Source: an uncultured Actinomycetes bacterium (GTDB taxonomy: Bacteria; Actinomycetota; Acidimicrobiia; IMCC26256; DASPTH01). From it: DNA of 64,000 bases. Positions within the stretch are counted from its first letter, which is position 1; every line of letters starts with the position of its first letter. The translations under genes and the position numbers were made by a program. Of the stretch, positions 22,794 through 39,921 are shown in pieces. The notes under the pieces were generated by a model. That model saw only the letters and a list, made by a program, of their open reading frames with translations. It was not told where the DNA came from and ran no database searches. Where the stretch lies: assembly GCA_963809795.1 (NCBI GenBank), contig CAWELN010000006.1, forward strand, positions 398,409-462,408, given 5' to 3'.

Positions 22794-22794
22794 C

Positions 22795-23232: not shown

Positions 23233-23576
23233 TGCACGAGCTCGCGCTCTGCCAGGCCATCGTCGACACGGTGACGCGCCACGCCGACGGGCACCGGGTG
23301 GAGCGGGTGGAGGTGCGCATCGGCCACTTTCGCCAAGTCGTGCCCGACTCGTTGCTGTTCTCGTGGGATCTCCTCGTGGACGGCACCGAGCTGTCGGGCT
23401 GCACGCTGGCGATCGACCACGTGCCCGCGGTCGTCGAGTGCGGCGCGTGCGGGGGCTCGACCACGCTCGACCTGCCGATCCTGATGTGCGGCACGTGCGG
23501 CAGCACCGACGTGGAGCTGGTGAGCGGTGAGGAGTTCCTCATCGCGTCGATCGACCGAGCGAAGGAGGTGTGTTGA
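23232..23576 (+). CDS. hypA: Hydrogenase Ni metallochaperone HypA
   Basis: MHE N-terminus, two CxxC, SGEEF. Confidence 0.95.
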   Translation: MHELALCQAIVDTVTRHADGHRVERVEVRIGHFRQVVPDSLLFSWDLLVDGTELSGCTLAIDHVPAVVECGACGGSTTLDLPILMCGTCGSTDVELVSGEEFLIASIDRAKEVC

Positions 23577-24364
23577 TGGGTCGGTTCCATCGTCACGCCG
23601 ACGGGACGGTGCATACGCACGACCACGAGCACGACCACGAGCACCGCGACGTCGGCGACCACCGGGGCTACGTCGACACCGGCAACGAGCGGGTGGCGGT
23701 GCTCGAGACCATCCTGGCCGAGAACGACCGGACCGCGGACGAGAACCGGTCGGACTTCGCCGCCGCCGGCGTCGTGACCGTCAACCTGATGTCGTCACCC
23801 GGCGCGGGCAAGACCACGCTGCTCAAGCGCACGATCACGATGCTCGGGTCACGCCTGCGCCTCGGCGTCCTGGAGGGCGACATCGCGACGAGCCTGGACG
23901 CCGACGAGCTCAGCGGCCTCGGCGCGCCGGTGGCGCTCGTGAACACCGCCGCCGGCTTCGGTGGCGAGTGCCACCTCGACGCCACGATGGTTCGGTCCGG
24001 TCTCGGCCGGCTGCCGCTGCGCGACCTCGACCTGCTCGTGATCGAGAACGTCGGCAACCTCGTGTGCCCGGCGGAGTTCGACGTCGGTCAGCACGCGCGG
24101 GCGATGGTCTCGGCGGTCACCGAGGGCGAAGAGAAGCCGCTCAAGTACCCGGTGATGTTCCGGGCGTGCGACGTCGTCGTCGTCAACAAGATGGACCTGC
24201 TCCCGCATCTCGACTTCGACCTGGACCGGTTCGTGGGCAATGTCCGGGATGTGAATCCCGCGGCCCGTCTCCTCTTCCTCAGCGCGCGCACCGGTGACGG
24301 CCTCGACGAATGGTGCGAGTGGCTGGTCGAGACCAGCTCGAGACACGGAGGGCTCGGGCTTTGA
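23576..24364 (+). CDS. hypB: Hydrogenase Ni-insertion GTPase HypB
   Basis: His-rich N-terminus, SSPGAGKTT, CHLDA, ENVGNLVCPA, NKMD. Confidence 0.95.
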   Translation: MGRFHRHADGTVHTHDHEHDHEHRDVGDHRGYVDTGNERVAVLETILAENDRTADENRSDFAAAGVVTVNLMSSPGAGKTTLLKRTITMLGSRLRLGVLEGDIATSLDADELSGLGAPVALVNTAAGFGGECHLDATMVRSGLGRLPLRDLDLLVIENVGNLVCPAEFDVGQHARAMVSAVTEGEEKPLKYPVMFRACDVVVVNKMDLLPHLDFDLDRFVGNVRDVNPAARLLFLSARTGDGLDEWCEWLVETSSRHGGLGL

Positions 24365-24450: not shown

Positions 24451-25544
24451 GTGGAGCAGCTGGTCATCAGCTCCGATGACGATCCCCGTCGCATGACGCG
24501 CTTCGACCTCGCACCACCCCGCCACTTCGTGTTCCCCGCGGTCCTGCTCCTGCTGTCCGAGGAGCCGAGCTACGGCTACGAGCTGGTCAAGGGCCTCCGG
24601 ACCTTTCGCTTCGGCACCGTCGACCGTCCCGCCGTGTACCGCGCGCTGGCCCAGCTCGAGAAGGACGGCCTGGTGGAGTCGCGGTCGGCCCAGTCGAAGG
24701 CGGGGACCGCGCGGCGCGTGTACCGGCTGACCGAAGCCGGCGAGATCGCCCTGCGGCGGTGGATGGGCGTGATGAAGGAGGAGCGCGACGGGCTCGACCG
24801 CGTGTTGCGCCGCTACCGCGCCACCGCGACCCCCCAGGCGCTGCTGGCCGACGCCGGAGTGCGGTCGGAGGTGCTCTCGGCGCCGCCGGTCATGGCGACG
24901 TCCCCCGCGTCCGACGGCGCCCCGACCACCGGCCTGCGCGTGGTCCCCGCCCTCGACGGCCGGCCGGTCGCGGCGCGGGCGCGGTCGACGGGTCCGACGT
25001 TCGGCACTGCGCGTACCGCCTGCTCCCCGACCGCTCGGCGGTGCTCATCGAGGCCCGGTCGAGCGTCGGGCCGATCACGTTCGGCGCCCTCGGCATCACC
25101 GGCACCATCGGGGTGCAGGCGGTCGGGGAGCAGGTGACGGCCGACGAGGCCGCGTCCGCCCACCTCGAGATCCCCGTCGCCGCGCTCAGCTCGGGGAACG
25201 GTCTCTACGACGCCGAGCTGCGCCGACGGGTGGACGCGGCGCGGTTCCCGGTCGCGACGCTCGACCTCGATCGCTGCCTGGTTGGGGGTTCGGGCGACCA
25301 CCTGACGCTCGAGGGCCGCATCGACTTCCACGGGGTGACCCGCAGCCTCCAGGGCCAGGTGGCCGCCGCGATCCCGAGTCCCGGGCGGTTGGCCGCGACC
25401 GGCGACCAGGTCCTCGACATCCGCGACTTCGGCGTGTCGTCCCCGACCGTCCTGATGTTCCGGATCTACCCGCAGGTCACGGTGAAGCTCCAGGTCGAGG
25501 CCGAGCTCGCGCCGGACGACGAGGACGGAGGTCCCGAACGATGA
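24451..25544 (+). CDS. PadR-family wHTH fused to a YceI domain (one base missing at ~25013)
   Basis: PadR motifs SYGYEL, VYRAL..LE.DGLV, RRVY.LT..G; adding one base gives ...TARYRLLPDRSAVLIEARSS, matching the N-terminus of the YceI at 39110; SGN..YDAELR, FHGVTR, DIRDFG. Confidence 0.75.
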
Positions 25545-25792
25545 AGGTGCTGATCGCGCTGGTGGGTGGCTACCTGATCGGCGCCCGCGCCGGCAGCCGC
25601 GACTTCGACCAGCTCAGCAAGTCGCTGCGCGCGCTCTACGAGTCGGAGGAGTTCGACGACTTCGTGAGCGCGTTGCGCACCCACGCCAGTCACACGTTGC
25701 GCGAGCTGGCCGACGTCCTCGATTCGGGGGGCGAGCTGGTCCCGACCCACGACCTCGTCGAGCGCGTGCGGCAGCTCGCCGCCCGCGACTGA
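25541..25792 (+). CDS. Small hypothetical protein with N-terminal hydrophobic helix
   Basis: ATGA overlap with the preceding gene, GGAG RBS, GYLIGARAG. Confidence 0.7.
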   Translation: MKVLIALVGGYLIGARAGSRDFDQLSKSLRALYESEEFDDFVSALRTHASHTLRELADVLDSGGELVPTHDLVERVRQLAARD

Positions 25793-25799
25793 CGTGGTG

Positions 25800-26603
25800 T
25801 CAGGCGTCGGTCACGTCGCGGCCGATGCCGCGGAGCCCGACCACGTCGCCGGATGTGCCGATCGCGGGTTCGGCCCGGGTCGACAGGTTCCGGCGGGAGC
25901 CGTCACCGCGCTGGATCGCGTAGTCGACGTCGACGGCGCGACCGGTGGCGACGGCGCGTTCCAGCGCGTCCCGCACCTGCGACCGTTCCTCGGGGACGAT
26001 GCGCCCGAGGTGCGCCTCGATGGTGCCCTCGAACTCGAGGGGATCGACCCCATGGATGCGATGGAACTCCGCGCTCCACTGCACGGTGCCGGTGGGCACG
26101 TCCCACAGCCACCGGCCGACGTGCGCGAGGGCCTCGCTCTCCTGCAGCCGCGCCTCGGATTCGGCCAGCAACTGCTGCGCGATGCGCTGCTCGGTGGTGT
26201 CCACCGCGATCGCCACCGCGCCGCAGCGCGCGCCGTCGGCGTCGACGACCGGGTGCAACGACAGCGAGACCGACACGGGCATCCCGGTGCGGCGCTCGAA
26301 GGTCGTCTCCCACCGGTCGACCCGGTCACCCGCCAGCACCGCGTCGACGAGCGTCGCGGCGTGCTCACGGAGGTCGCTCGGGAACAGAACGGGCAACGGA
26401 CCACCGAACACGTGGTCGGCCGCGTAGCCGCAGAGCCGTTCCGCGCCGCGGTTCCAGAGCACGATGCGTCCCTGTGCATCCATCGCGAACATCGCGTCGT
26501 TCGCGGCGTCGACGAGGGTCTCGAGCATCGCGAGTCGTCGCGTCGTCGGGGAATCCGTCTGTACCGTGCGCGGGAGGCTACCCCGGTGTCCCGTCGTGCG
26601 CAC
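25800..26603 (-). CDS. Stand-alone tandem PAS/PAC-domain protein without an output domain
   Basis: DAQGRIVLWNRGAERLCGY and GRWLWDV..GTVQWS...GIGRDVT, then a stop; start uncertain. Confidence 0.75.
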   Translation of the reverse strand: MRTTGHRGSLPRTVQTDSPTTRRLAMLETLVDAANDAMFAMDAQGRIVLWNRGAERLCGYAADHVFGGPLPVLFPSDLREHAATLVDAVLAGDRVDRWETTFERRTGMPVSVSLSLHPVVDADGARCGAVAIAVDTTEQRIAQQLLAESEARLQESEALAHVGRWLWDVPTGTVQWSAEFHRIHGVDPLEFEGTIEAHLGRIVPEERSQVRDALERAVATGRAVDVDYAIQRGDGSRRNLSTRAEPAIGTSGDVVGLRGIGRDVTDA

Positions 26604-26617
26604 CCGGACGCGGCCCG

Positions 26618-27334
26618 ATGACGGCGCGACCCGAGACCACGGCCGAGGACCTGGCTGCGATCGCGCTCGCGTTGGCGCGCCGCTTCTCCGCCGGCGCCAC
26701 GATGTGGTGCCTCGCTCCCGACTGGCCGGAGCACGCGCACCACGTGGCGGTCGAGTTCGTGCACCCGGTGATCATGGGCAAGCGCGCACTGCCGGCGGTC
26801 GCGGTGGTCGACGACGACCCGGTCTCGTGCCTGCGTGTGCAGGTGCGCCGCCACGACGTCCTGCTCGTGGTGGGCCGGGAGTCGAACGCGGCCCGGACCG
26901 TGCTCGAGCGGGCCCGGATCTGGGGGCTGACCACCGTGTGGATCGGGTGCGGGTCCCGTCCCGCGCCCGGGGCAGCCGATCACGTGGTCTGGGTCGACGA
27001 CGACGGTCCCGCCGCGCCGTACGACGGCCGCCTGACCCAGCGGTACCACCTGCTCTGGGAGCTCACCCACGTGTGCTTCGAACATCCGGGCCTGCTCGCG
27101 TCGGTCGACGACTGTGCGGGCGAGGTCTGCATCACCTGCTCCGACGAAGGGAGCGTCGCCGAGGTGGTGGAGGGGGGGACGGCCCACGCAGTGGTGCGGG
27201 ACCCACGGGGTACCACCACCGTCGACACGCTGCTGGTGGGCGCGGTCGTCCCGGGGGACCTGGTGCTGCTCCACGCCGGCACGGCCATCGCACGCGTCGA
27301 CGCGGTCGGCGCGGTCGACGCCGGGAGGCCCTGA
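26618..27334 (+). CDS. SIS-like domain fused to a HypC/HupF-like domain
   Basis: HVAVEFVHPVIMGKRALPA, YHLLWELTHV, CITCSDEG...GDLVLLHAGTAI. Confidence 0.8.
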   Translation: MTARPETTAEDLAAIALALARRFSAGATMWCLAPDWPEHAHHVAVEFVHPVIMGKRALPAVAVVDDDPVSCLRVQVRRHDVLLVVGRESNAARTVLERARIWGLTTVWIGCGSRPAPGAADHVVWVDDDGPAAPYDGRLTQRYHLLWELTHVCFEHPGLLASVDDCAGEVCITCSDEGSVAEVVEGGTAHAVVRDPRGTTTVDTLLVGAVVPGDLVLLHAGTAIARVDAVGAVDAGRP

Positions 27335-27335
27335 C

Positions 27336-27995
27336 GTGGCCGAGGGCACCGACTTCCTGTATCCGTTCATCGAGGGCGACGAGCGCGACGCGGGCACCCT
27401 CCTCGTCGATCTCGCGGCGTCGGTGGAGGCCAAGGTCGCCGCCGGGGACGCGCTGCGCGAAGCCACGTTCGCCCGGCTCGGGACCGAGGTCGCCGCGACC
27501 GCGCGCTCGATGGCGGACCGCTTCCGCCGGGGTGGCCGGCTCTTCACGTTCGGGAACGGCGGGAGCGCCACCGACGCCCGCTCCCTGGCGTCGCTGTTCG
27601 GCCGCCCGCCCGCCGGTCGCCCGCTCCCGGCGCGGTGCCTGGTCGACGACCCTGCCGTGCTCACCGCCCTGGCCAACGACGTCGGCTTCGAGCTGGTCTT
27701 CACCCGCCAGCTCATCGCCCATGCCGGGCCCGACGACATCGCGGTGGGCATCTCGACCAGCGGCAACTCCCGCAACCTGCTGCGCGCGCTCGAGCACGCG
27801 GCGCGCACCGGCCTGCTCACGCTCGGGTTGGCGGGCTACGACGGCGGCGACATGCAGAGGTGCGGCGCGCTCGACGCCTGCTTCGTCGTCGAATCCGACA
27901 GCGTGCACCGCATCCAGGAGGTGCAGGCGGCGTTGGCCTGGCGCCTGTGGTCGGAGGTCCAGGCGTGCCTCGACGAGGACGCGACCGGTGTCTGA
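27336..27995 (+). CDS. GmhA-like SIS-domain (phosphoheptose isomerase family) protein
   Basis: FGNGGSATDA, LTALAND, STSGNS, HRIQE. Confidence 0.88.
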   Translation: MAEGTDFLYPFIEGDERDAGTLLVDLAASVEAKVAAGDALREATFARLGTEVAATARSMADRFRRGGRLFTFGNGGSATDARSLASLFGRPPAGRPLPARCLVDDPAVLTALANDVGFELVFTRQLIAHAGPDDIAVGISTSGNSRNLLRALEHAARTGLLTLGLAGYDGGDMQRCGALDACFVVESDSVHRIQEVQAALAWRLWSEVQACLDEDATGV

Positions 27996-29088
27996 CGCCG
28001 CCGCGCCGATGCCGGGCGACCGCGAAGCCGCGGTCCTCGACCGCATCACCGCCTTCCGGCGTCGTCGGCCGCGCCTCACCGACGACGTGGTGACCCTCGC
28101 GCACGGCGCAGGCGGGAAGGCGTCGGCGGCGCTGGTGGACTCGGTGTTCCTCGACGCGTTCGCGCACGGCGACCCCGGCCCCTTGCCCGACGCGGCGACG
28201 TTGTCGCTCGCCGGCGGGGTCCGACTCGCCTTCAGCACCGACTCGTTCGTGGTGCAACCGCTGCGGTTCCCAGGCGGCTCCATCGGCCACCTCGCGGTGC
28301 ACGGCACCGTGAACGACCTCGCGGTGCAGGGCGCGGAGCCCCGCTGGCTGTCGGCGGCGTTCGTGCTCGAGGAGGGGTTCCCGATCGACGAGCTGCGCGG
28401 CATCGTCGCCGACATGGCCGACGCGGCCCGGGCCGCCCACGTGGAGATCGTCACCGGCGACACCAAGGTGGTCGGGCGCGGCGCGGCCGACGGCATGTTC
28501 GTCACCACCGCGGGCGTCGGCGTCATCCCCGAGGGACGAACGCTCGATGCCGCCCGCGTGGAACCGGGTGACGTCGTGCTCGTCTCGGGCACCATCGCCG
28601 ACCACGGGATGGCGGTGATGCTCGCACGCGGCGACCTCTCGCTCGAGAGCGACATCCGCTCCGACACCGCACCCGTGGGCGTGCTGGTCGACGCGCTCCT
28701 GACCGCGGCGCCGCGGACGCGGTGGCTGCGCGATCCCACGCGCGGTGGCGTCGGCACCGTCTGCAACGAGCTGGCGCGCGACTCGGGCCTGGCCGTGGTC
28801 CTCGACGAGGCCGACCTCCCTGTCCTCCCGGCGGTGAACGGTGCGTGCGACCTCCTCGGGATCGATCCGCTGATGGTGGCCAACGAGGGCAAGGTGGTCG
28901 CGGTCGTGGCGCCCGAGGAGGCCGACGACGCGCTGCGGGCGATGCGCGCACACCCGTTGGGCGGTGACGCGGCGCGCATCGGGGAGATCGCGGCCGAGCC
29001 CGAGGGCATCGTCGTGCTCCGCACGACGTTCGGCGGCACCCGCATCGTCGACATGCTCGTCGGGGACCCGCTGCCCCGGATCTGCTGA
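27988..29088 (+). CDS. hypE: Carbamoyl dehydratase HypE
   Basis: HGAGG, TDSFVV, GDTKVV, RDPTRGG, C-terminal PRIC. Confidence 0.96.
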   Translation: MSDAAAPMPGDREAAVLDRITAFRRRRPRLTDDVVTLAHGAGGKASAALVDSVFLDAFAHGDPGPLPDAATLSLAGGVRLAFSTDSFVVQPLRFPGGSIGHLAVHGTVNDLAVQGAEPRWLSAAFVLEEGFPIDELRGIVADMADAARAAHVEIVTGDTKVVGRGAADGMFVTTAGVGVIPEGRTLDAARVEPGDVVLVSGTIADHGMAVMLARGDLSLESDIRSDTAPVGVLVDALLTAAPRTRWLRDPTRGGVGTVCNELARDSGLAVVLDEADLPVLPAVNGACDLLGIDPLMVANEGKVVAVVAPEEADDALRAMRAHPLGGDAARIGEIAAEPEGIVVLRTTFGGTRIVDMLVGDPLPRIC

Positions 29089-29095
29089 GGCCACG

Positions 29096-31369
29096 GTGGT
29101 CCGCACGTTGCTGCGCGTCACCGGCACCGTGCAGGGAGTCGGCTTCCGCCCGTTCGTGTACCGGCACGCGGTCGCGCTCGGCCTCGTCGGCACCGTGCGC
29201 AACGACAGCGAGGGCGTGCTGATCGACGTCGAGGGCGACCCGGCCGGCGTCGCCGCGCTGGAGCGGGTCCTGACCGAGTCGCCCCCGCCGCTGGCCCGCG
29301 TGGCATCGGTGGAGGCGCGCCCGGTCGCGCCCGACGGCGAGCGCGACGACTTCCGCATCGTCGAGACCGACGCGGTCGGGCCGCTGGCGACCGCGGTGAG
29401 CATCGACACCGCCGCGTGCGACGACTGCCTGGCCGAGGTGGACGATCCGGGGGATCGCCGCTACCGGTACCCGTTCACGAACTGCACCAACTGCGGGCCC
29501 CGCTACACCATCACCCGGCGCGTGCCGTACGACCGGCCCACCACGACCATGGCCGGCTTCTCGATGTGCGCGCGGTGCCGGGCCGAGTACGACGACCCGG
29601 GCGACCGCCGCTTCCATGCCCAACCGAACGCCTGCCCGGACTGCGGGCCGCGCGTGTCCTGGCGCGATGCGCAGGGGGTGCCCGGTGCCGACGGCGACGA
29701 CGCGCTGGACGCCGCCGTTGCCGCGCTGGCGAGCGGGGCGATCGTCGGCGTGAAGGGGATCGGTGGCTTCCACCTGGCCGTGCGGGCCGACGACGAGGAT
29801 CGCGTCGCCGAGCTCCGACGGCGCAAGGCACGCGACGACAAGCCGTTCGCGGTGATGGTGGCCGACGTCGCCGCCGCCGACGCGGTCGGGATGCTCGACG
29901 ACCGGGCGCGGGCGGTCCTCACGTCGCCGGCACGACCGATCGTGATCGTCCCGCGACGCGACGTCGGCACGATCGCGCCCTCGGTCGCACCGGGATCGCC
30001 CGACCTCGGGGTGTTCCTCCCGTATTCGCCGCTCCATCATCTCCTGGTGCGGGGCGTCGGGGCGCCGCTGGTGATGACGAGCGGGAACCGCAGCGACGAC
30101 CCGATCGCGCACGACGACGCCGACGCCGTCGCCCGCCTGGGCCCGCTGGTCGACGCCTTCCTCACCCACGACCGCCCCATCCACATCCGCTGCGACGACT
30201 CGGTGGTGCGGGCGACCCCGCGCCGCGTGCAGGTGCTCCGGCGGTCGCGCGGCTACGCGCCCGAACCGCTCCGGCTCCCCGGCGCGGCCTCGCGTGCGGT
30301 GCTGGCGGTCGGGGGTGAGCTGAAGTGCACCATCGCGGTCACCCGCGAGCACGACGTCGTCGCCGGCCACCACCTCGGCGACCTCGAGCACCTCGCCACG
30401 TACGAGTCGTTCCTCCAGTCGCTCGCGCACCTGCCGGCGCTGTACGGCGTGTCACCGGAGGTCGTCGCGCACGACCTCCACCCGGAGTACCTGTCGTCGA
30501 AGCTGGCGCGCGACCTCGACGTCCCCACCGTCGCGGTGCAGCACCACCACGCACACGTCGCCGCGTGCATGGTCGAGCACGAGCGGCGCGACCCGGTCGT
30601 CGCGCTGGCGTTCGACGGCCTCGGGTACGGGCCCGACGGCACCCTCTGGGGCGGCGAGGTGCTGGTGGCCGGGTTCGACGGCTTCGAGCGCGTCGGCCAT
30701 CTGCGGTCGGTGCCCATGCCCGGGGGCGCGGCGGCGATCCGGGAGCCGTGGCGCATGGCGACGGTCTGGGGTGAGCTCGCCACCGGCGATGCGATCGCGG
30801 TGCGCGGCGTCGACCCCGCCCGCGTCGCCGACGTGCGCAACCTCGCCGGCCGGCCGTCGACCCTGACCACCACCAGCATGGGCCGCTTGTTCGACGCGGT
30901 CGCGGTGCTCCTCGGCGGGCGCACGTCGGTGAGCTACGAGGCCCAGGCCGCCATCGAGCTGGAGTGGTCGGCGCGGCGGGCGGCACCGGGCGACCGGCTC
31001 GACCGGGCTGACCTGGCCGACCTCGTGTCCGTCGCGGACGGCGACGGCGGCCTCGTCCTCGACCCCGGCGCGCTCGTGGCCCGGCTCGTCGCCGAGCGCC
31101 GGGCGGGTACCGACGTCGCGGTGCTCTCGGCCGGGTTCCACGACGCCATCGGGCGCGCCGCAGTCCGGGTCGCGGCCGAGATCGCGCGGACGCGCGGCAT
31201 CGACGCGGTCGTCCTCACCGGCGGCGTCTTCCAGAACACCTACCTCACCGAGGTGGTCGAGTGCGGTCTCGCGGCGGAGGGGCTGCGGGTCCTCGTGCAC
31301 GCCCGAGTGCCGCCGAACGACGGTGGGCTCAGCATCGGCCAGGCGGCGATCGCCGCCCTCGGCACGTAA
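29096..31369 (+). CDS. hypF: Carbamoyltransferase HypF
   Basis: GTVQGVGFRP, zinc fingers, HDLHP, QHHHAH, PPNDGG. Confidence 0.96.
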   Translation: MVRTLLRVTGTVQGVGFRPFVYRHAVALGLVGTVRNDSEGVLIDVEGDPAGVAALERVLTESPPPLARVASVEARPVAPDGERDDFRIVETDAVGPLATAVSIDTAACDDCLAEVDDPGDRRYRYPFTNCTNCGPRYTITRRVPYDRPTTTMAGFSMCARCRAEYDDPGDRRFHAQPNACPDCGPRVSWRDAQGVPGADGDDALDAAVAALASGAIVGVKGIGGFHLAVRADDEDRVAELRRRKARDDKPFAVMVADVAAADAVGMLDDRARAVLTSPARPIVIVPRRDVGTIAPSVAPGSPDLGVFLPYSPLHHLLVRGVGAPLVMTSGNRSDDPIAHDDADAVARLGPLVDAFLTHDRPIHIRCDDSVVRATPRRVQVLRRSRGYAPEPLRLPGAASRAVLAVGGELKCTIAVTREHDVVAGHHLGDLEHLATYESFLQSLAHLPALYGVSPEVVAHDLHPEYLSSKLARDLDVPTVAVQHHHAHVAACMVEHERRDPVVALAFDGLGYGPDGTLWGGEVLVAGFDGFERVGHLRSVPMPGGAAAIREPWRMATVWGELATGDAIAVRGVDPARVADVRNLAGRPSTLTTTSMGRLFDAVAVLLGGRTSVSYEAQAAIELEWSARRAAPGDRLDRADLADLVSVADGDGGLVLDPGALVARLVAERRAGTDVAVLSAGFHDAIGRAAVRVAAEIARTRGIDAVVLTGGVFQNTYLTEVVECGLAAEGLRVLVHARVPPNDGGLSIGQAAIAALGT

Positions 31370-31381
31370 CGGGCCGCGCGG

Positions 31382-32291
31382 TCAGGAACCGCGGAAGGGA
31401 GGCGCGGCACCCCGGCCCATGCCCCAGCTCATGCCCCCGAGGCGGCCCTCCTCGAGCAGATCGGGGCCCCGCACGTCGTACGCGGTGAGCAGGCCTTCGC
31501 CGTCGTCGCCCCGGTTCATCGCGATGCACGGGGCGCGGAACGGGCACCGCGCGCAGTGCACCCACGACGGGTCGGGGTCGATGCGGACGTCCGGGTCGAT
31601 CATGTCCAGGACGACTCGCGCCAACCGGCGCGCCGCGCCGGCCTTCTCGACGTCCGACCGCGGGACCAACCGCCGCCGGTACGCCGGCGGGTCGATGCGC
31701 AGCTCCGTGTACTGGACGCCCGCGATCGTCGTGGCCAGCTCGATCTCCTCCCAGGCCCAGCACGCGAGCGCAGGCGCGCTCGTCGAGCCGGAGCTCGTCG
31801 TCGTCGGCGAACTGCCGGACCACGCGGTGCTCACCGAGCCAGCACCGGTCGTCGTCGTCGACCAACACCAGGTCGATGCGGTCCCGGTAGCGCACCGCGT
31901 CGCCCGCGGTGCTGGCCAGGTGGGTGTCGGGGAGCACCGGGTCGGGGACGTGCACGTCGATGTCGGCCTCGACGCGCAGGGGCGTCCCCTCGTCGGCCGT
32001 GGCCGCCCACCGCAGGAACCCCTCGAGGAGCGCGCGACCGTCGGCCGGCCCGCCCGCCTGCTCGTACGCCGCGTGGACGAACGGCTCGACGATCGTCCGG
32101 TCCCAGGCCCACATGCCGGGGAAGTAGTGCACCGCCAGCGCGGCCCGGAGCGCCACCACCAGGCTCCCGTCCGGCTCGAGCGGGGCGGCGTGGGGCACCA
32201 GTCCCCGCCGGGCCCGGGCGCCGAGATCCCAGGCGCGCCGGCAGCGACCGAACCACTCCCGGTCGTCGGGGGTGACGACGAACTTGGGCAT
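31382..32291 (-). CDS. PD-(D/E)XK superfamily Cas4/AddB-like protein with four conserved Cys; frameshift at ~31772
   Basis: N-terminal F.RCRR, VEA, RIDLV...GEHR, C-terminal HCARCPFRAPC; joins ORFs 31329-32342 and 31382-32731. Confidence 0.7.
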
Positions 32292-32344
32292 CGCCTCATT
32301 CGACGCCTGCGCCCGCCGCCGGTCAAAGGGTGCGCAAGACACTC

Positions 32345-32370
32345 ATTTACAGGTCCGGGGGAGGGGGGTA
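32345..32370 (+). promoter_or_regulatory. Possible SigF/SigB-type promoter ATTT-N17-GGGTA upstream of hhyS
   Basis: Resembles GTTT-N15-17-GGGTA. Confidence 0.4.
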
Positions 32371-32426
32371 CACCCGGGATGGCGGACCAACGCCCCGCCC
32401 ATGGGTCGAGCGCGGGAGGCCCCATC

Positions 32427-33482
32427 GTGACCAGCACGCAAGCCCCTCCGGACGAGACCGTCGTCCACATCCTCTGGATCAACGCCGGGCTGAGCTGTGA
32501 CGGCGACTCGGTCGCCCTCACCGCGGCGACCCAGCCCAGCATCGAGGAGATCGCGCTCGGCGCCCTGCCCGGCCTCCCGAAGATCGCGGTGCACTGGCCG
32601 CTGATCGACTTCGAGTGCGGCCCGGTCGGCGGCGCCGACGACTTCATCGAGTGGTTCTTCAAGGCCGACCGCGGCGAGCTCGAGCCGTTCGTGCTGGTGG
32701 TGGAGGGCTCGATCCCCAACGAGGCGATCAAGAGCGAGGGCTACTGGTGCGGGTTCGGCAACAACCCGGAGACGGACCAGCCGATGACGACGAGCGAGTG
32801 GCTCGACCGCCTGGCGCCGAAGGCGCTGGCGGTGCTCGCGGTCGGCACGTGCGCGGCCTACGGCGGCATCCACGCCATGGCCGGCAACCCGACCGGCGCG
32901 ATGGGCGTGCCCGACTACCTCGGGTGGGGCTGGAAGTCGAAGGCGGGCCTGCCCATCGTGTGCGTGCCCGGGTGCCCCGTGCACCCGGACAACCTCTCCG
33001 AGACCATCCTCTACCTCCTGTACCAGGCGACCGGCCAGGCGCCGATGATCCCGCTCGACGACGCGCTGCGACCGCAATGGCTGTTCGGCGCCACCGTGCA
33101 CGAGGGCTGCGACCGCGCCGGCTACTACGAGCAGGGCGACTTCGCGACCGAGTACGGCTCGCCGAAGTGCATCGTGAAGCTCGGGTGCTGGGGCCCGGTG
33201 GTGAAGTGCAACGTGCCCAAGCGCGGCTGGATCAACGGTGTCGGCGGGTGCCCGAACGTCGGTGGCATCTGCATCGGGTGCACGATGCCCGGCTTCCCGG
33301 ACAAGTTCATGCCGTTCATGGACGAACCACCCGGCGCGCGCGTGTCGACGATGGCGAGCGGGGTGTACGGCAGCGCGATCCGCGGGCTGCGCCGCATCAC
33401 CGCCAAGACCATCGACGAGGAACCGAAGTGGCGGACACCCGGCACGAAGCTCACGACCGGCTACCAGGGCGAGTGGAGGTAA
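32427..33482 (+). CDS. hhyS: Group 1h [NiFe]-hydrogenase small subunit
   Basis: GLSCDGDS, GTCAAYGG, PGCP, HEGCDR, GGCPNVGGICIGC; no Tat signal; GGGAGG RBS (alternative ATG at 32379). Confidence 0.95.
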   Translation: MTSTQAPPDETVVHILWINAGLSCDGDSVALTAATQPSIEEIALGALPGLPKIAVHWPLIDFECGPVGGADDFIEWFFKADRGELEPFVLVVEGSIPNEAIKSEGYWCGFGNNPETDQPMTTSEWLDRLAPKALAVLAVGTCAAYGGIHAMAGNPTGAMGVPDYLGWGWKSKAGLPIVCVPGCPVHPDNLSETILYLLYQATGQAPMIPLDDALRPQWLFGATVHEGCDRAGYYEQGDFATEYGSPKCIVKLGCWGPVVKCNVPKRGWINGVGGCPNVGGICIGCTMPGFPDKFMPFMDEPPGARVSTMASGVYGSAIRGLRRITAKTIDEEPKWRTPGTKLTTGYQGEWR

Positions 33483-33486
33483 TCCG

Positions 33487-35271
33487 ATGGCGACGACCAA
33501 GACCAAGGACGCCAACGGGCTCGTCGAGATGGCGTGGGACCCGATCACCCGGATCGTCGGCAGCCTCGGCATCTACACCAAGATCGACTTCGGTCAGGGC
33601 AAGGTCGCGGAGTGCCACAGCACGTCGTCGATCTTCCGCGGCTACAGCATCTTCATGAAGGGCAAGGACCCGCGCGACGCGCACTTCATCACCAGCCGCA
33701 TCTGTGGGATCTGCGGTGACAACCACGCGACGTGCTCCTGCTACACGCAGAACATGGCGTACGGCGTGCACCCCCCGGCGCTGGGCGAGCAGATCGTCAA
33801 CCTCGGCGAGGCGGCCGAGTACATGTTCGACCACAACATCTTCCAGGAGAACCTGGTCGGCGTCGACTTCTGCGAGAAGATGGTCGCGGAGACCAACCCG
33901 GGTGTCCTCGAGCAGGCGAACCGCACCGAGGCGCCCCACGCGGCCGACCACGGCTACAAGACGATCGGCGACATCATGCGGTCGTTGAACCCGTTCTCGG
34001 GTGAGTTCTACCGCGAGGCACTGCAGGTCAGCCGGTACACGCGCGAGATGTTCTGCCTGATGGAGGGACGCCACGTCCACCCGTCGACGCTGTACCCGGG
34101 TGGAGTCGGCACGACCGCGACCATCCAGCTCTTCACCGACTACTACACGCGGCTCATGCGCTACGTGGAGTTCATGAAGCGCGTCGTCCCGATGCACGAC
34201 GACCTCTTCGACTTCTTCTACCAGGCGCTGCCGGGCTACGAGGAGAACGGCCGGCGGCGCGTGCTCCTCGGCTGCTGGGGCGCGTTCCAGGACCCCGCCG
34301 TCTGCAACTTCAAGTACCGCGACATGAGCGAGTGGGGACGCGCCATGGGCGTCACGCCCGGTGTGGTCGTCGACGGCAAGTTGGTCACCAACGACCTCGT
34401 CGACATCAACCTCGGCATCCGCATCCTCCTCGGTTCCTCGTTCTACGAGGACTGGGAGGGCCAGGAGATGTTCGTCAGCCGGGACCCGCTCGGCAACCCG
34501 GTCGACCGCCGCCACCCGTGGAACCAGCACACCAACCCGCGACCGCAGAAGCGCGACTTCGACAGCAACTACAGCTGGGTCATGTCGCCGCGCTGGTTCG
34601 ACGGCACCGACCACCTCGCGCTCGACACCGGCGGCGGCCCGATCGCGCGCCTCTGGTCGACCGCGCTGTCGGGGCTGGTCAACACCGACCACATCAAGGC
34701 GACCGGTTCGAGCGTGCAGATCTTCCTGCCCCGCACCGCGCTGAAGCCCGAGATGACGCTGGAGTGGAAGGTGCCGCAGTGGTCGAACACGCTCGAGCGT
34801 GACCGCGCGCGCACGTACTTCCAGGCGTACGCGGCCGCCAGCGCGCTCGATTTCATCGAGAAGGCCCTGGCCGACGTGCGCGCCGGCAAGACGAAGACGT
34901 GGGAGCCGTTCGAGGTGCCCGACGAGGGCATCGGCTGTGGGTTCACCGAAGCGGTGCGGGGCGTGCTGTCGCACCACATGGTGATCCGGGAAGGGAAGAT
35001 CGCCAACTACCACCCGTACCCGCCGACCCCGTGGAACGCCAACCCGCGCGACGTCTTCGGCACCCCCGGTCCCTACGAGGACGCGGTGATGAACACCCCG
35101 ATCTTCGAGGAGAACACGCTCGAGAACTTCAAGGGGATCGACATCATGCGCGCCGTCCGCAGCTTCGACCCGTGCCTGCCGTGCGGCGTCCACATGTTCC
35201 TCGGCAAGGGCAAGACGCTCGAGCGGGTGCACACCCCGACCCAGGTCGCGGACTCGACCCTCGCCACCTGA
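33487..35271 (+). CDS. hhyL: Group 1h [NiFe]-hydrogenase large subunit
   Basis: L1 TSRICGICGDNH and L2 RSFDPCLPCGVH group 1h signatures. Confidence 0.96.
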   Translation: MATTKTKDANGLVEMAWDPITRIVGSLGIYTKIDFGQGKVAECHSTSSIFRGYSIFMKGKDPRDAHFITSRICGICGDNHATCSCYTQNMAYGVHPPALGEQIVNLGEAAEYMFDHNIFQENLVGVDFCEKMVAETNPGVLEQANRTEAPHAADHGYKTIGDIMRSLNPFSGEFYREALQVSRYTREMFCLMEGRHVHPSTLYPGGVGTTATIQLFTDYYTRLMRYVEFMKRVVPMHDDLFDFFYQALPGYEENGRRRVLLGCWGAFQDPAVCNFKYRDMSEWGRAMGVTPGVVVDGKLVTNDLVDINLGIRILLGSSFYEDWEGQEMFVSRDPLGNPVDRRHPWNQHTNPRPQKRDFDSNYSWVMSPRWFDGTDHLALDTGGGPIARLWSTALSGLVNTDHIKATGSSVQIFLPRTALKPEMTLEWKVPQWSNTLERDRARTYFQAYAAASALDFIEKALADVRAGKTKTWEPFEVPDEGIGCGFTEAVRGVLSHHMVIREGKIANYHPYPPTPWNANPRDVFGTPGPYEDAVMNTPIFEENTLENFKGIDIMRAVRSFDPCLPCGVHMFLGKGKTLERVHTPTQVADSTLAT

Positions 35272-35290
35272 GCTCACGACCGGAGCTGGC

Positions 35291-35875
35291 ATGGCGGCGC
35301 AGAACCTCCGGGTGGTCGGAGACCGGATCGAGCAGCTGCTCGACGAATTGCACGCCACCGCCGAGCCGGCCACCTGCGCGCTGGCGCAGGAGCTGCTCCG
35401 GCTGGTGACGGAGCTCTACGGCGGTGGGCTCGAACGGGTGGTGGCGCTGGCACGCGAGGACGCGCCCGAGCTCATCGACCGGCTCCTCGCCGACGAGCTG
35501 GTCGCCAGCCTCCTGCTCGTGCACGGCCTGCACCCCGAGTCGGTGACCGCCCGGGTCGAGCAGGCGCTGGAGTCGGTGCGACCCTTCCTCGCGACCCACG
35601 ACGGCGACGTCGAGCTGCTCGACGTCGACGAGGACGCCGGCGCGGTGCACCTGCGGCTGCTCGGCAGTTGCGACGGCTGCCCGTCGTCGGCCGTGACGTT
35701 GCGCGACGCGGTCGAGCGGGCGATCGTCGAGGCGGCGCCCGAGATCACGATCATCGACGTCGAACAACCGTCGACCGAGGCCCCCGAACCGGCGGTGATC
35801 GGCACCCCGGTGACCCTGACCCGCAAGCCGGCGCCGCGCTTCGAGAGCTGTCCCACCGGGGTTGCGGCGCGATGA
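35291..35875 (+). CDS. NifU-like Fe-S protein (HhyE-like, short)
   Basis: LLLVHGLHP, VRPFL..HDGDV, GSCDGCPSS. Confidence 0.85.
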   Translation: MAAQNLRVVGDRIEQLLDELHATAEPATCALAQELLRLVTELYGGGLERVVALAREDAPELIDRLLADELVASLLLVHGLHPESVTARVEQALESVRPFLATHDGDVELLDVDEDAGAVHLRLLGSCDGCPSSAVTLRDAVERAIVEAAPEITIIDVEQPSTEAPEPAVIGTPVTLTRKPAPRFESCPTGVAAR

Positions 35876-36496
35876 GCGGCGACCCCCTCGCAGCCGTACG
35901 GCGCCTCCGCCGCGCGCCGTCACCGCCGCCCCCGGTGGGCGAGACCTGCGAGCTCTGCGGCGAGCCGGTGGGGCCCGAGCACAACCACCTGGTCGACCTC
36001 GAACGTCGCAACCTCATGTGCGCGTGCCGGCTCTGCTGGATGCTCTTCGCGCCCGACGGTGCCGGCGGCGGGCACTTCAAGGCGGTACCGGAGCGGTACG
36101 TGGCGTTCCCCGACCTCCGGTTGACGCGCGCCGAGTGGGACTCGCTCCAGATCCCGGTGAGCGTCGCGTTCTTCTTCGTGAACTCGAGCATCGATCGCGT
36201 CGCCGCGTTCTACCCGGGCCCGGCGGGCGCGACCGAGTCGCTCCTCCCGCTCGACACGTGGGACGAGCTCGCGATCGGTCACGCCGAGCTGGCGACGCTG
36301 CTGCCCGACGTCGAGGCGTTCCTCGTGCGCGCCGTACGCGGTGCCGACGAGGCGGAGTGCTTCCTCGTGCCCATCGACGCGTGCTACGAGCTGGTCGGTC
36401 GGTTGCGGATGCTGTGGCGGGGCTTCGACGGCGGGCAGGAGGCGCACCAGGCGCTCGAAGCAGTTCTTCCTCGAGGTGCGGGCGAGGGCGTCGTGA
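35872..36496 (+). CDS. DUF5947-like (HhaA-like) hydrogenase accessory protein; extra base at ~36460
   Basis: CELC, CACRLC, FYPGPAGATES, PIDACYELVG, WRGFDGG; the corrected frame ends QFFLEVRARAS* overlapping the next GTG. Confidence 0.8.
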
Positions 36497-37140
36497 GCGA
36501 CCTCGAGTTCGAGGTGCTCGACGCGCAGCCCGAGCCCTACGCGGCGGTGCCGACGATCATGCTCCGGCTGCGGGTCACCGAGCGCAGCGGGATGCCGGTG
36601 CACGCCGTGGCGCTGCGCTGCCAGGTGCGCATCGAGCCCCAGCGGCGGCGCTACACCGACGCCGAGACCGCGGCCCTGGTCGAGGTGTTCGGCGAGCGCA
36701 CCCAGTGGGCCGATTCGCTGCGGCCGTTCCTGTGGACGCACGTCTCGACCACCGTGTCGTCGTTCTCGGGCAGCACCGAGGTCGACCTGCCGATCACGTG
36801 CACCTACGACTTCGAGGTGTCGGGCACGCGCTACTTCCACACGCTGGCCGACGGCGAGATCCCGCTCCTCCTGTTGTTCTCGGGCACGACGTTCGTCGCC
36901 GGAGCCGACGGGTTCTCGGTCACCCCGGTGGCGTGGCACGAGGAGGCCGCGTTCCGTCTCCCGGTGGCGGTGTGGCAGGGGATGATGGACGCCCACTACC
37001 CGAACCGCGCGTTCGTCACCGTGAGCCGCGAGACCCTCGACGGGCTCCTCCGGTACCGCGCCGCGCACGCGCTGCCCACCTGGGACCTGGTCCTCGAACG
37101 GCTGCTGAAGGAAGCAGGCGCGGCGGGGGAGGAGCGGTGA
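36493..37140 (+). CDS. DUF6084-like (HhaB-like) accessory protein
   Basis: CQVRIEP.RRRY, CTYDFEV, PLLLLFSGT, HYPN. Confidence 0.8.
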   Translation: MSDLEFEVLDAQPEPYAAVPTIMLRLRVTERSGMPVHAVALRCQVRIEPQRRRYTDAETAALVEVFGERTQWADSLRPFLWTHVSTTVSSFSGSTEVDLPITCTYDFEVSGTRYFHTLADGEIPLLLLFSGTTFVAGADGFSVTPVAWHEEAAFRLPVAVWQGMMDAHYPNRAFVTVSRETLDGLLRYRAAHALPTWDLVLERLLKEAGAAGEER

Positions 37141-38489
37141 GCGATCGCTTCGACGCCGCCCGCGCCGTCGCCGACGCGGTGCTGTTCGAGGGCTACGTGC
37201 TGTACCCGTACCGCGCGTCGGCGCCCAAGAACCAGATCCGGTGGCAGTGGGGTGTGCTCTTCCCGCGGGCATTCGCCGAGGCCGACGGCTCCGAGCGGTG
37301 GCGGAACCGCACCGAGTGCGTGGTCGACCCCGGGAGCTCGCCCCGGCTGACCGTGCGCGTGCGTGGGCTGCACGTGCAGCACCGATCGGTCGAAGTCGAC
37401 GGCACGCCGGTCTCCGAGGTGCACGTCGACGGCGTCCCGTGGGTGCCGTGGGACGAGGCGGTGGAGTGGGAGGTCGACCTGCCGGCCGTGCCCCTGCTGC
37501 CGCTGCAGGAGGCGACGCACGAGGAGCTCGTGGCGCTGCCCGGCGGCGAGGAGCGGGAGCCACTGCGGAGCGCCGACGGCACCGAGTGCGGCGTCCTGGT
37601 GCGCCGCCGCGAGCCGATCGACGTCGTCGTGAGCGTCGCCGCCGAGTGGGCGGCCGGCAACGGTGCGCTCGTGAAGGCCACCGTGGTGGTCGAGAACGCG
37701 TCGCCGGCGACGGTCGACACGACGACGCGTGATGACGCGCTCCGGCGCGCGCTCGTGGCCGTCCACCTCCTGCTCGGCGTCGACGACGGCGCCTTCGTCT
37801 CGCTGCTCGACCCTGACGACGGTGCGCGGGCCGCGGTCGCGGGATGTGACGGCGACGGCACGTTCCCGGTGCTCGTGGGCGGCGACGACCGGGTGATGCT
37901 GGCCGCGCCGATCATCCTGTACGACCACCCGGAGATCGCCCCCGAGAGCGACGGTGATCTGTGCGACGCCACCGAGATCGACGAGATCCTCGCGCTGCGC
38001 GTCCTGACCCTGACCGACGAGGAGAAGGCGGAAGCCCGTGCCACCGACCCCCGCGCGGCCGCGATCGTGGACCGCATCGACGACATGGCGCCCGAGACCT
38101 TCGCGCGCCTGCACGGGACGCTTCGGGAGTTGCGCCCGCTGCCGGATGAGGATGCGGACGTGGCCGTGCCGTGGTGGGAGCCCGCCGTCGACGCCGCGGT
38201 AGACCCCTGGTCCGACACCCTCCTCGTCGGCGGCGTCGAGGTCGCGGCGGGGACCCGCGTGCGGCTCCGGCCGTCGCGCCGGGCCGACGCGCACGACATG
38301 TTCCTGCGCGACATGGTCGCCACCGTGGCCGGTGTCTTCCACGACGTCGACGACGAGCTCCACGTCGCGGTGACGGTCGACGACGACCCCGCGACCGAGG
38401 CGATGCTCGCGCACGGTCGCTACCTGTACTTCCATCCCGACGAGATCGAGCCGCTCGCGTCGGACGAGTCGCGGTCGCGCTCCTCGTGA
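37137..38489 (+). CDS. Conserved group 1h accessory protein (HhaC-like)
   Basis: AVADAVLFEGYVLYPYRASA.KNQ.RWQ, PIILYDHP, DATEIDEIL, YLYFHPDE. Confidence 0.8.
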   Translation: MSDRFDAARAVADAVLFEGYVLYPYRASAPKNQIRWQWGVLFPRAFAEADGSERWRNRTECVVDPGSSPRLTVRVRGLHVQHRSVEVDGTPVSEVHVDGVPWVPWDEAVEWEVDLPAVPLLPLQEATHEELVALPGGEEREPLRSADGTECGVLVRRREPIDVVVSVAAEWAAGNGALVKATVVVENASPATVDTTTRDDALRRALVAVHLLLGVDDGAFVSLLDPDDGARAAVAGCDGDGTFPVLVGGDDRVMLAAPIILYDHPEIAPESDGDLCDATEIDEILALRVLTLTDEEKAEARATDPRAAAIVDRIDDMAPETFARLHGTLRELRPLPDEDADVAVPWWEPAVDAAVDPWSDTLLVGGVEVAAGTRVRLRPSRRADAHDMFLRDMVATVAGVFHDVDDELHVAVTVDDDPATEAMLAHGRYLYFHPDEIEPLASDESRSRSS

Positions 38490-39001
38490 GCGCGCGCGTG
38501 CTCGTGGCCGGGATCGGGAACATCTTCCTCGGCGACGACGGCTTCGGCGTCGAAGTGGCCCAGCGGCTGCGCCGGCGCCCGGCGAGAGACGGCGTGCGGG
38601 TGGAGGACTACGGCATCCGCGGCGTCCACCTCGCCTACGAGCTGCTCGACGGCTACGACGCGCTCGTCCTCGTCGACGCGGTGCCCATGGACGAGCCCGC
38701 GGGCACGGTGGTGGTGATGGAACCGGATCCGCCGTCACCGGCGACCGAGGGACTCGGCGGCCCCGTGCTCGAGGCCCACAGCATGGATCCGGTCGTCGTG
38801 CTCGACCTCCTCGCCGGCCTCGGCGGCACGGTCGACCGGGTGCTGGTGGTCGGCTGTGCGCCGGCGTCGCTCGACGAGGGGATCGGCCTGTCGGCGCCGG
38901 TCGAGGACGCGGTCGACCGCGCCGTCGACGCCATCGAGGACCTGCTCGGAGACCTGTGCGCGCCGATCGCGCGCACGGATGCAAAGGAGACCTGCCCATG
39001 A
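38486..39001 (+). CDS. Hydrogenase maturation endopeptidase
   Basis: GIGNIFLGDDGFG, LVDA, AHSMDP. Confidence 0.92.
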   Translation: MSARVLVAGIGNIFLGDDGFGVEVAQRLRRRPARDGVRVEDYGIRGVHLAYELLDGYDALVLVDAVPMDEPAGTVVVMEPDPPSPATEGLGGPVLEAHSMDPVVVLDLLAGLGGTVDRVLVVGCAPASLDEGIGLSAPVEDAVDRAVDAIEDLLGDLCAPIARTDAKETCP

Positions 39002-39102
39002 TCCGCAAGCTGTTCGTGTTGTCGGCGCTCGCGGCGGTCGCCGGCCTGGTGATCCGCTCGCTGCCCGACATCCAGCGGTATCTCAAGATCCGTGAGATGT
39101 AG
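38998..39102 (+). CDS. 34-aa membrane peptide (DUF6893-like), below the ORF-track cutoff
   Basis: MIRKLFVLSALAAVAGLVIRSLPDIQRYLKIREM; AAGGAG RBS and ATGA overlap. Confidence 0.8.
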   Translation: MIRKLFVLSALAAVAGLVIRSLPDIQRYLKIREM

Positions 39103-39109
39103 GCGGTTC

Positions 39110-39625
39110 GTGGCCCGCTACCGCATCGTGCCCGAGCGCTCGAAGGTGTTCATCTCCGCCCGCTCCAGCCTCCACCCGATCGACACGCGCACCGACGGGT
39201 TGGAGGGCTTCGTCGACCTCGAGGTGCAGGGCGGCGGGCGCCTGAACCTGACCGTGCCGACGAAGGGCCGGGTGTCGTTCCCGGTCGAGCGGATGGCGTC
39301 GGGCAACCCGCTCGAGGATCGCGAGCTGCGGCGCCGAATCGACGCCCGCCGCTACCCGACGATCGAGGGCGCGCTCACCGACATGCACGAGACGGGACGG
39401 GACGGCCGGTACCTGGTACGCGGCGACGTGACGTTCAAGGGCTCCACCCGCAGCTACGAAGACGAGATGGCGGTGTCGCAGGACGACGACGGGACGCTGC
39501 GGTTGACGGGGGAGTCCATCTTCGACATCCGCGACTTCGGCATGGACCCGCCGCGCATCCTCATGCTCAAGGTCGAACCCGAGGTCGGCGTGCGGGTCGA
39601 GATCCTCGCCGAGCGGGAGGGCTGA
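39110..39625 (+). CDS. YceI-family lipid/polyisoprenoid-binding protein, no signal peptide
   Basis: RS.VFI.ARSS, SGNPLEDRELR, YPTI, GDVTFKG.TR, DIRDFG. Confidence 0.8.
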   Translation: MARYRIVPERSKVFISARSSLHPIDTRTDGLEGFVDLEVQGGGRLNLTVPTKGRVSFPVERMASGNPLEDRELRRRIDARRYPTIEGALTDMHETGRDGRYLVRGDVTFKGSTRSYEDEMAVSQDDDGTLRLTGESIFDIRDFGMDPPRILMLKVEPEVGVRVEILAEREG

Positions 39626-39627
39626 CC

Positions 39628-39921
39628 GTGTGCCTCGGCATCCCCGGCCAGGTGATCGAGCTGCTCGAGGTGCACGAGCACCTCGCGCGCATCGACGTGA
39701 GTGGGGTGGGTCGGGTCGTGAACATCGGCCTGCTGGAAGACGAGCACCTCGCACCGGGTGACTGGGTGCTCATCCACGTCGGCTTCGCGATGTCGAAGAT
39801 CGACGAGGACGAGGCGCGGCGGGCACTGGAGGGGCTCCAGCTCCTCGGTCGGGAGCTCGACGACGAGCTGCAGGCGCTCGCGACCTCGAGGATCACCGCC
39901 GAGGAAGGGGGTACTCGCTGA
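39628..39921 (+). CDS. hypC: Hydrogenase chaperone HypC
   Basis: MCLGIPG, GDWVLIHVGFAM. Confidence 0.95.
   Translation: MCLGIPGQVIELLEVHEHLARIDVSGVGRVVNIGLLEDEHLAPGDWVLIHVGFAMSKIDEDEARRALEGLQLLGRELDDELQALATSRITAEEGGTR

Follow-up and report, generated by a model that had tools for sequence, protein, structure and literature searches.

A PadR–YceI fusion regulator and a standalone YceI barrel in a group 1h [NiFe]-hydrogenase cluster: a lineage-restricted candidate system for quinone sensing and supply

The hhy operon and its standalone YceI gene

The window analysed here is a 64 kb stretch (64,000 nt; GC ~72 %) of contig CAWELN010000006.1 from an uncultured Acidimicrobiia bacterium, and it carries a gene cluster for a group 1h [NiFe]-hydrogenase (Hhy) in which two YceI domains are encoded, one as a standalone protein and one fused to a PadR-type regulator. 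Among the biological sinks of atmospheric H2, group 1h hydrogenases are the main one. Genes on the plus strand, to which all features below belong unless stated otherwise, were called from third-position GC combined with Pfam matches. The genes for the small subunit, hhyS (32379-33482; Oxidored_q6 and NiFe_hyd_SSU_C), and the large subunit, hhyL (33487-35271), are followed by a NifU-like gene of the HhyE type (35291-35875; NifU, 80 bits), an open frame with DUF5947 and DUF6084 (35872-37140; 223 and 294 bits), a conserved hypothetical gene of hhy clusters (37137-38489), a hupD/hycI-type maturation protease gene (38486-39001; HycI, 53.8 bits), a gene for a 34-aa membrane peptide of family DUF6893 (38998-39102), the standalone yceI-1 gene (39110-39625), hypC (39628-39921; 87.4 bits) and hypD (39921-41042; 512.7 bits). 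Gaps between consecutive genes never exceed 19 nt across the stretch from hhyS to hypD, five start/stop overlaps occur among them, and we read the region as one operon. Assignment to group 1h follows from HhyL, whose best structure match was HofG of the actinobacterial-type hydrogenase of R. eutropha (5AA5_C) at 1081 bits, against 161 bits for the runner-up.

The yceI-1 gene runs from a GTG codon at 39110 to a TGA codon at 39625 and encodes 171 aa scoring above the Pfam YceI (PF04264) cut-off (40.9 vs 23.7 bits). An AlphaFold2 (AF2) model with a predicted local distance difference test score (pLDDT) of 94.2 displayed an eight-stranded antiparallel lipocalin-like barrel, which Foldseek matched with probability 1.00 to structures 1WUB, 5IXH, 3HPE, 7BWL and 1Y0G at template modelling (TM) scores of 0.74-0.81. 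The top Foldseek matches were all YceI barrels, with an SRPBCC/START-like fold of the CoxG type represented only by START chains at probability 0.16-0.35 and TM ≤0.17, and a phmmer search with YceI-1 against PDB sequences gave nothing at E ≤1. YceI-1 thus shares the PF04264 match and the barrel with the known YceI lipocalins (T. thermophilus TT1927b, 1WUB; E. coli YceI, 1Y0G; B. cenocepacia BcnA, 5IXH; P. aeruginosa PA0423, 7BWL), but it is only 15-21 % identical to them, is cytoplasmic, is encoded within a [NiFe]-hydrogenase operon instead of beside cytochrome b561, and has a PadR-fused sister barrel. No hydrophobic segment was present at its N-terminus. This state is not distinctive, since the best canonical YceI of the same genome (161 bits) is also signal-less. 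An earlier note on this DNA, made from the sequence alone, had described a signal-less YceI gene inside the hhySL-hypCD operon directly after a 34-aa membrane peptide, and that description holds. The family around YceI-1 comprises 1529 proteins at E ≤1e-3, uniform in length, and 392 of the 50 %-identity representatives match it at E ≤1e-10.

Relatives of YceI-1 were collected from one genome per species, giving 176 loci, and the best 80, nearly all in metagenome-assembled genomes (MAGs) labelled Acidimicrobiia, were used for synteny counts by tblastn with the window proteins. DUF6893 lay directly 5' of the YceI homologue in 64/80 loci and hypC 3' of it in 66/80, whilst hypD and hupD were nearby in 64/80 and 63/80, respectively, and hhyL was found on the same strand at about -5.7 kb in 54/80. 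Several loci end at contig edges, so these counts are lower bounds. Three more divergent genomes (G059, G325 and G267) keep an identical gene order around yceI-1. The conserved hypothetical gene at 37137-38489, for which a Pfam search gave no family, was matched in 59/80 loci and in 14/14 YceI-free group 1h clusters retrieved from the phylum sample introduced below. At loci L033, L073 and L075 the frame opened at hhyS is 928-981 aa long and reaches the hhyL region, owing either to a fusion of hhyS with hhyL or to a frameshift in the assembly.

The DUF6893 peptide immediately 5' of yceI-1 is preceded by a ribosome-binding site (AAGGAG), and its start codon overlaps the hupD stop codon (ATGA). 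It scored 52.2 bits against a PF21833 cut-off of 24.6 and has a hydropathy of 2.06. The same family follows hupD in 10 of the 14 group 1h clusters without YceI, and in six of those ten the next gene resembles the HypA of the window, as judged by eye. DUF6893 is accordingly a general group 1h element, irrespective of YceI, and the specific partnership that had been proposed between YceI and small membrane peptides serving as docking sites is unsupported.

Features that could tie the enzyme to the membrane were also sought. HhyS lacks the twin-arginine (RRxF) motif of the twin-arginine translocation (Tat) pathway, and no hydrogenase cytochrome b (Ni_hydr_CYTB, PF01292) exceeded its cut-off in the genome (87 % complete) or was found in the window, in agreement with the earlier note on both counts. 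DUF1641 (PF07849), the family of the HucM/Ncp-type tubes, had no match in the genome, with 58 first-look candidates scored. The clusters of R. eutropha HofKG (5AA5) and M. smegmatis Hhy are likewise without a Tat signal or cytochrome b, and share hhySL, NifU-like hhyE, DUF5947/DUF6084, hupD, DUF6893 and hyp genes with the window. What the window lineage adds is yceI-1, a padR–yceI-orf83 module and a lineage-specific element upstream of hhyS. In 2019 the electron acceptor of Hhy was still unresolved according to the available text of one source (PMC6883350), and a review (PMC10657181) does not treat the electron route of Hhy.

The PadR–YceI fusion and the element upstream of hhyS

The second YceI domain (YceI-2, ~25005-25544) scored 41.8 bits against the cut-off of 23.7 and is 35 % identical to YceI-1 (E 3e-29). 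A plausible start codon of its own is lacking. By third-position GC the coding signal leaves a PadR frame for that of YceI at ~24960-24990, without an intervening stop codon, and the upstream frame carries a PadR domain (PF03551; 63.6 bits vs a cut-off of 27). At 24976-24979 the assembly has a C and then a G-run with one G fewer than independent contigs: an extra G after 24976 was present in 2/2 public soil-metagenome contigs that bridge the site (runs X1 and X2, from two studies, X1 being possibly the source sample), whilst runs X3 and X4 have no bridging contig and are uninformative on the indel. With the added G, a single 350-aa PadR–YceI open reading frame (ORF) spans 24493-25544 and aligns end to end with 16 intact fusions at 44-53 % identity. 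A separate YceI-2 gene starting at GTG 24759 was considered and rejected, as the PadR frame there has a third-position GC of 0.97-1.0. The earlier note had placed a second, clearly paralogous YceI domain at 25014-25544; the domain and its paralogy stand, but it forms the C-terminal part of a PadR–YceI fusion and is not a gene of its own.

Comparison across the collection supported this gene structure. The module of PadR, YceI-2 and orf83 was found near the cluster in 21/80 loci, with PadR and YceI in one uninterrupted ORF in 16 of the 21; the five loci with a split fusion all belong to MFD-series MAGs. In 14/14 further genomes tested, all positive for the element described below and with no fusion within 10 kb, a fusion lay 13.5-28 kb from yceI-1 on the same contig, in one frame in 12 and split in two (G404 and G410). 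Both PF03551 and PF04264 were present in all 120 homologues listed among 1055 proteins matching an intact fusion at E ≤1e-10. An AF2 model of one intact homologue (locus L084) comprised a winged helix-turn-helix with long helices (residues 10-128; helix 10-57, wing strands 61-79, helix 81-111), a disordered linker (124-170) and a barrel (183-351) with pLDDT >90. In a phylogenetic tree the fused barrels formed one group (21 rows; Shimodaira–Hasegawa-like approximate likelihood ratio test support of 100) apart from the 81 standalone copies, and a Cys absent from the standalone family is nearly invariant among them.

The PadR family includes ligand-responsive regulators such as B. subtilis PadR and L. 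lactis LmrR. The fusion resembles these in its winged helix-turn-helix and long C-terminal helix, and in 19 loci it is divergent from hhyS, the first gene of its presumed target operon; it differs in the addition of a YceI barrel, the presumed sensor, on a disordered linker.

No fusion was found in G059, G325 or G267 despite yceI-1 in their hhy operons, and the genome of locus L090 (G406) gave matches to the YceI part only. Standalone yceI-1 is therefore more widely distributed than the fusion. One YceI-only match in the latter genome (G406:C115:19816-20349) scored 206 bits to the fusion profile, against 152 for the operon copy, and is without a PadR part; this may be the regulator-type barrel in unfused form. 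Separately, a count by hand gave ten genomes of the phylum sample (G017, G200, G393, G349, the unpublished G048, G338, G190, G294, G369 and G223) in which a PadR-only match to the fusion profile and an HhyL-like gene share a contig, 1.4-12.8 kb apart. Most of these HhyL-like genes are only 37-45 % identical to HhyL of the window, and related hydrogenases may often have PadR-type regulators nearby.

The small gene 3' of padR–yceI, orf83 (25541-25792), encodes a conserved protein with a tblastn match in 26/80 loci, where it either adjoins PadR–YceI or separates hypC from hypD. In ten loci (L021, L022, L045, L057, L071, L080, L081, L083, L095 and L096) it lies 0.8-1.2 kb 3' of yceI-1 by hypC/hypD. 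This placement away from padR–yceI indicates that orf83 is a member of the hydrogenase cluster independently of that gene. Neither Pfam nor NCBIfam has a family for it; an Atlas search gave an unnamed actinobacterial family, and a YtxH-like match at 0.82 is a mere lead.

Alignment of the 19 divergent padR–yceI/hhyS intergenic regions revealed a conserved A/T-rich block, GGTGCAAAAGACACTCATTTAC, the 3' end of which is a -35-like TTTACA or TTGAC, with a TAnnnC box ~17 nt further 3'. Enumeration of exact palindromes in the same 19 regions found no perfect inverted repeat in common. The window contains exactly one copy of this operator-like element (GTGnnAAAnnCACyCATTkAC, 32330-32350, two mismatches), against 0 matches in 100 shuffles, and this copy overlaps the -35 box of a putative hhyS promoter (32345-32373). 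The promoter reads TTTACA, 17 nt, TACACC, and is followed after 5 nt by the ATG codon, a layout that would make it putatively leaderless-like. The candidate operator, GTG-N7-CAC, differs from the ATGT-N8-ACAT operator of PadR and LmrR.

The element was then scored by its best match in the 250 nt preceding hhyS, leaving out L111 for its short upstream sequence and 32 loci with no hhyS match. It was present at 0-7 mismatches in 47/48 YceI-type loci and in 0/13 scorable clusters without YceI, where the best matches had 9-11 mismatches, equivalent to background (mostly 9-12). It was not seen upstream of hhyS in G059 or G325, which have yceI-1 in the usual slot, and it is absent from L090. Overall, the fusion was found in 34/34 element-positive clusters vs 0/16 element-negative clusters, a pattern suggestive of the element tracking the fusion regulator and not the standalone barrel.

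Candidate roles and distribution of the two barrels

The explanation that we favour overall, at somewhat short of an even chance, is a lineage-restricted two-part YceI system consisting of a regulator and a standalone barrel. PadR–YceI would be a one-component regulator, its winged helix-turn-helix joined to a YceI barrel by a flexible linker, that would bind the GTG-N7-CAC element abutting the -35 box of the putative leaderless hhyS promoter and control the hhySL-to-hypD operon according to the hydrophobic ligand in its barrel. YceI-1, co-translated with the maturation genes, would bind the same class of ligand, most likely menaquinone or menaquinol, and keep quinone within reach of the soluble, anchor-less Hhy. 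These parts differ in strength. What the sequence data show is the presence of the genes, their operon arrangement and barrel fold, the paralogy, the fusion and an element that co-distributes with the regulator, whereas operator binding, ligand identity and transfer of quinone to HhyS are inferred. PadR–YceI probably regulates hhy; an isoprenoid quinone as the ligand is somewhat less likely than not; and a shuttling of quinone to HhyS by YceI-1 is doubtful.

The sensor idea of the earlier note fits the second YceI copy as the domain of a fusion regulator. A duplicate of a wider-spread barrel appears to have been recruited as the sensor of the cluster's own regulator, which suggests that its ligand matters specifically to Hhy; menaquinone is the obvious hydrophobic candidate, because the hydrogenase is cytoplasmic and anchor-less and menaquinone is its presumed acceptor. 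Precedent for quinone binding by the fold, also raised in the earlier note, comes from YceI barrels that crystallise with octaprenyl phosphate, octaprenylphenol or ubiquinone-8 (UQ-8), as given in the available part of PMC9113575. Three quinone-delivery proteins are described in the accessible portions of PMC12202499 and PMC13524794: CoxG for molybdenum-containing carbon monoxide dehydrogenase (Mo-CODH), HucM for Huc and Ncp for NDH-2. The job proposed for YceI-1 is like theirs, namely menaquinone access for a soluble or peripheral oxidoreductase, but this is a functional analogy only: CoxG has an SRPBCC fold and HucM/Ncp are DUF1641 tubes, and the fold of YceI-1 is unrelated to both. A candidate lineage-specific role as isoprenoid-quinone carrier and sensor is plausible. 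A fuller scheme, improbable as a whole, would have the PadR–YceI barrel sense the menaquinone/menaquinol pool, possibly with help from the nearly invariant Cys, and turn on atmospheric H2 oxidation when organic donors run out, with YceI-1 as a soluble menaquinone carrier and thereby a third independently evolved delivery fold after HucM/Ncp and CoxG.

For one abundant group of soil Actinomycetota, the locus offers a testable candidate regulator–operator pair together with a candidate lipid or quinone carrier, which bear on gene control and on the electron hand-over to the respiratory chain in group 1h hydrogenases. Public data hold more than 1000 members of the PadR–YceI architecture, for which a function has yet to be described; should the ligand be a quinone, the fusion would constitute a new type of respiratory-state sensor. 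A literature search, partly at title/abstract level and with most subscription journals and supplements outside its coverage, gave no description of YceI with Hhy or group 1h hydrogenases or of a PadR–YceI fusion. Within the same coverage of journals, the word PadR does not occur in any of the papers listed for group 1h hydrogenases.

Several results weigh against a YceI-based system of this kind, its distribution among them. From 401 genomes drawn evenly across the phylum, 61 had an HhyL-like match, and 45 of these were taken as true group 1h at ≥62 % HhyL identity (the 45 include the unpublished G018 and G239, and the remaining 16 the unpublished G048, G120 and G148). The YceI subfamily (E <1e-19) was present in only 5/45 group 1h genomes (G000, G059, G267, G325 and G122) and also in three sample genomes without a group 1h HhyL. 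Clusters were retrieved for 14 of the 40 YceI-negative group 1h genomes, and YceI was absent from 14/14. Clusters with and without YceI occur even within one family (f20). Hhy consequently works without YceI in most lineages, and YceI is an add-on limited to certain lineages, not a general answer for Hhy. Conversely, 14/80 YceI homologues have no hydrogenase gene within 10 kb, a few of them on short contigs, and the neighbours of eight such orphans are mixed, including genes for a short-chain dehydrogenase/reductase (SDR), an FAD oxidoreductase, a sulfatase and a NicO-like protein. Within the operon, YceI-1 sits in the maturation block hupD-DUF6893-yceI-hypC-hypD and not beside hhySL/hhyE. The HhyS C-terminus is the same in clusters with and without YceI, with no co-varying docking feature. 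As for regulation, the GTG-N7-CAC dyad is weak, and the association of element and fusion is suggestive rather than statistical proof, since the clusters with both are related. A complex prediction for HhyS with YceI-1 scored 0.01 against a mark of 0.32, which is no answer, neither for nor against binding.

The scatter of the orphan copies also bears on a rival account, in which YceI-1 is a general cytoplasmic binder of lipids or isoprenoids, for storage, antioxidant purposes or membrane stress, that is co-expressed with Hhy in starvation and stands outside electron transfer. In a quick maximum-likelihood tree the orphans were scattered among the hydrogenase-linked copies, with eight changes, and one orphan (L086) was sister to a hydrogenase-linked copy (L079) in the same MAG. 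Together with the mixed neighbourhoods, the signal-less canonical YceI elsewhere in the genome and the lack of YceI from most group 1h clusters, this pattern is consistent with a general binder, as is the proposal, in the available text of PMC9113575, that YceI/BcnA quenches lipid peroxyl radicals via bound UQ-8. Against it stand the tight operon placement, conserved in 64-66/80 loci and in divergent lineages, and the recruitment of a paralogous barrel into the cluster's own regulator, which argues for an Hhy-specific ligand. We regard such a general role as possible, if on the unlikely side. As a separate observation, one orphan (L032:8966-11412) is encoded in one frame with an SDR (adh_short, residues 30-228; YceI, 347-508), and a NicO-like nickel permease gene comes after it.

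The paralogy of the two barrels, and their occurrence in one cluster in 21/80 loci, 14/14 further genomes and the window, would also suit a mainly regulatory YceI-1 that partners PadR–YceI, whether by buffering or delivering its ligand or by forming a heterodimer, without acting directly at the enzyme. Such a role is hard to reconcile with the wider spread of the standalone gene: the hhy operons of G059, G325 and G267 contain yceI-1 with no PadR–YceI found, G406 is likewise fusion-free, and G059 and G325 also lack the element upstream of hhyS. We consider it quite unlikely.

The slot of yceI-1 between hupD and hypC, inside the block hupD-DUF6893-yceI-hypC-hypD and at the position of the HypA-like gene in YceI-free clusters, raises the further thought that YceI-1 is a hydrogenase maturation or assembly factor. 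No step in [NiFe] cofactor assembly is known to involve a lipid-binding barrel, the window has a hypA gene at another site (23232-23573), and most group 1h clusters mature without YceI. On the other side, the role of the HhyE-type accessory is also unsettled between assembly and electron transfer, according to the available text of PMC6883350. A maturation role is in our estimate very unlikely, and the narrower idea of YceI-1 as a replacement for hypA was rejected given the hypA gene at hand.

The general form put forward in the earlier note, with YceI as the missing menaquinone link of all group 1h hydrogenases, docking on small membrane peptides and adding a third quinone solution for the group, can draw on the unresolved electron route of Hhy and on the DUF6893 gene adjoining yceI-1 here, but is contradicted by the 5/45 co-occurrence of YceI and hhyL across genomes, the check that the earlier note itself had called for, and by DUF6893 without YceI in 10/14 clusters, and is highly improbable. 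The two-part system of regulator and standalone barrel, which we prefer, narrows that original claim to a lineage-specific add-on.

Neighbouring genes and further observations

The remaining maturation genes lie upstream of the hhy operon. A Fur-family regulator gene (22741-23232; FUR, 77.6 bits) adjoins hypA and hypB (23570-24364), both identified by Pfam, at their 5' side, and may be a candidate nickel-responsive regulator of maturation genes. Beyond padR–yceI and orf83, a minus-strand gene with two PAS domains (25800-26603) stands between orf83 and a block comprising a hypC-like gene (~27071-27334), a SIS-domain gene (27114-27995) and hypE (~27988-29088), followed by hypF (28964-31369).

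Downstream of hypD, a 471-aa membrane protein (41130-42545; hydropathy 2.46, strongly hydrophobic segments) has no Pfam or NCBIfam family and a tblastn match only in the two closest loci (L018 and L019); it is a candidate membrane partner. NCBIfam gave no family for YceI-1, YceI-2, the 34-aa peptide, orf83 or two unknown proteins of the window. DUF5947 and DUF6084 are two separate Pfam families that share one stop-free open frame here (35872-37140). Between hypF and hhyS, a minus-strand gene (31329-32731) displays an apparent mid-gene frame change, with ORFs 31329-32342 and 31382-32731 each partly real-looking, which suggests that the assembly contains more small indels.

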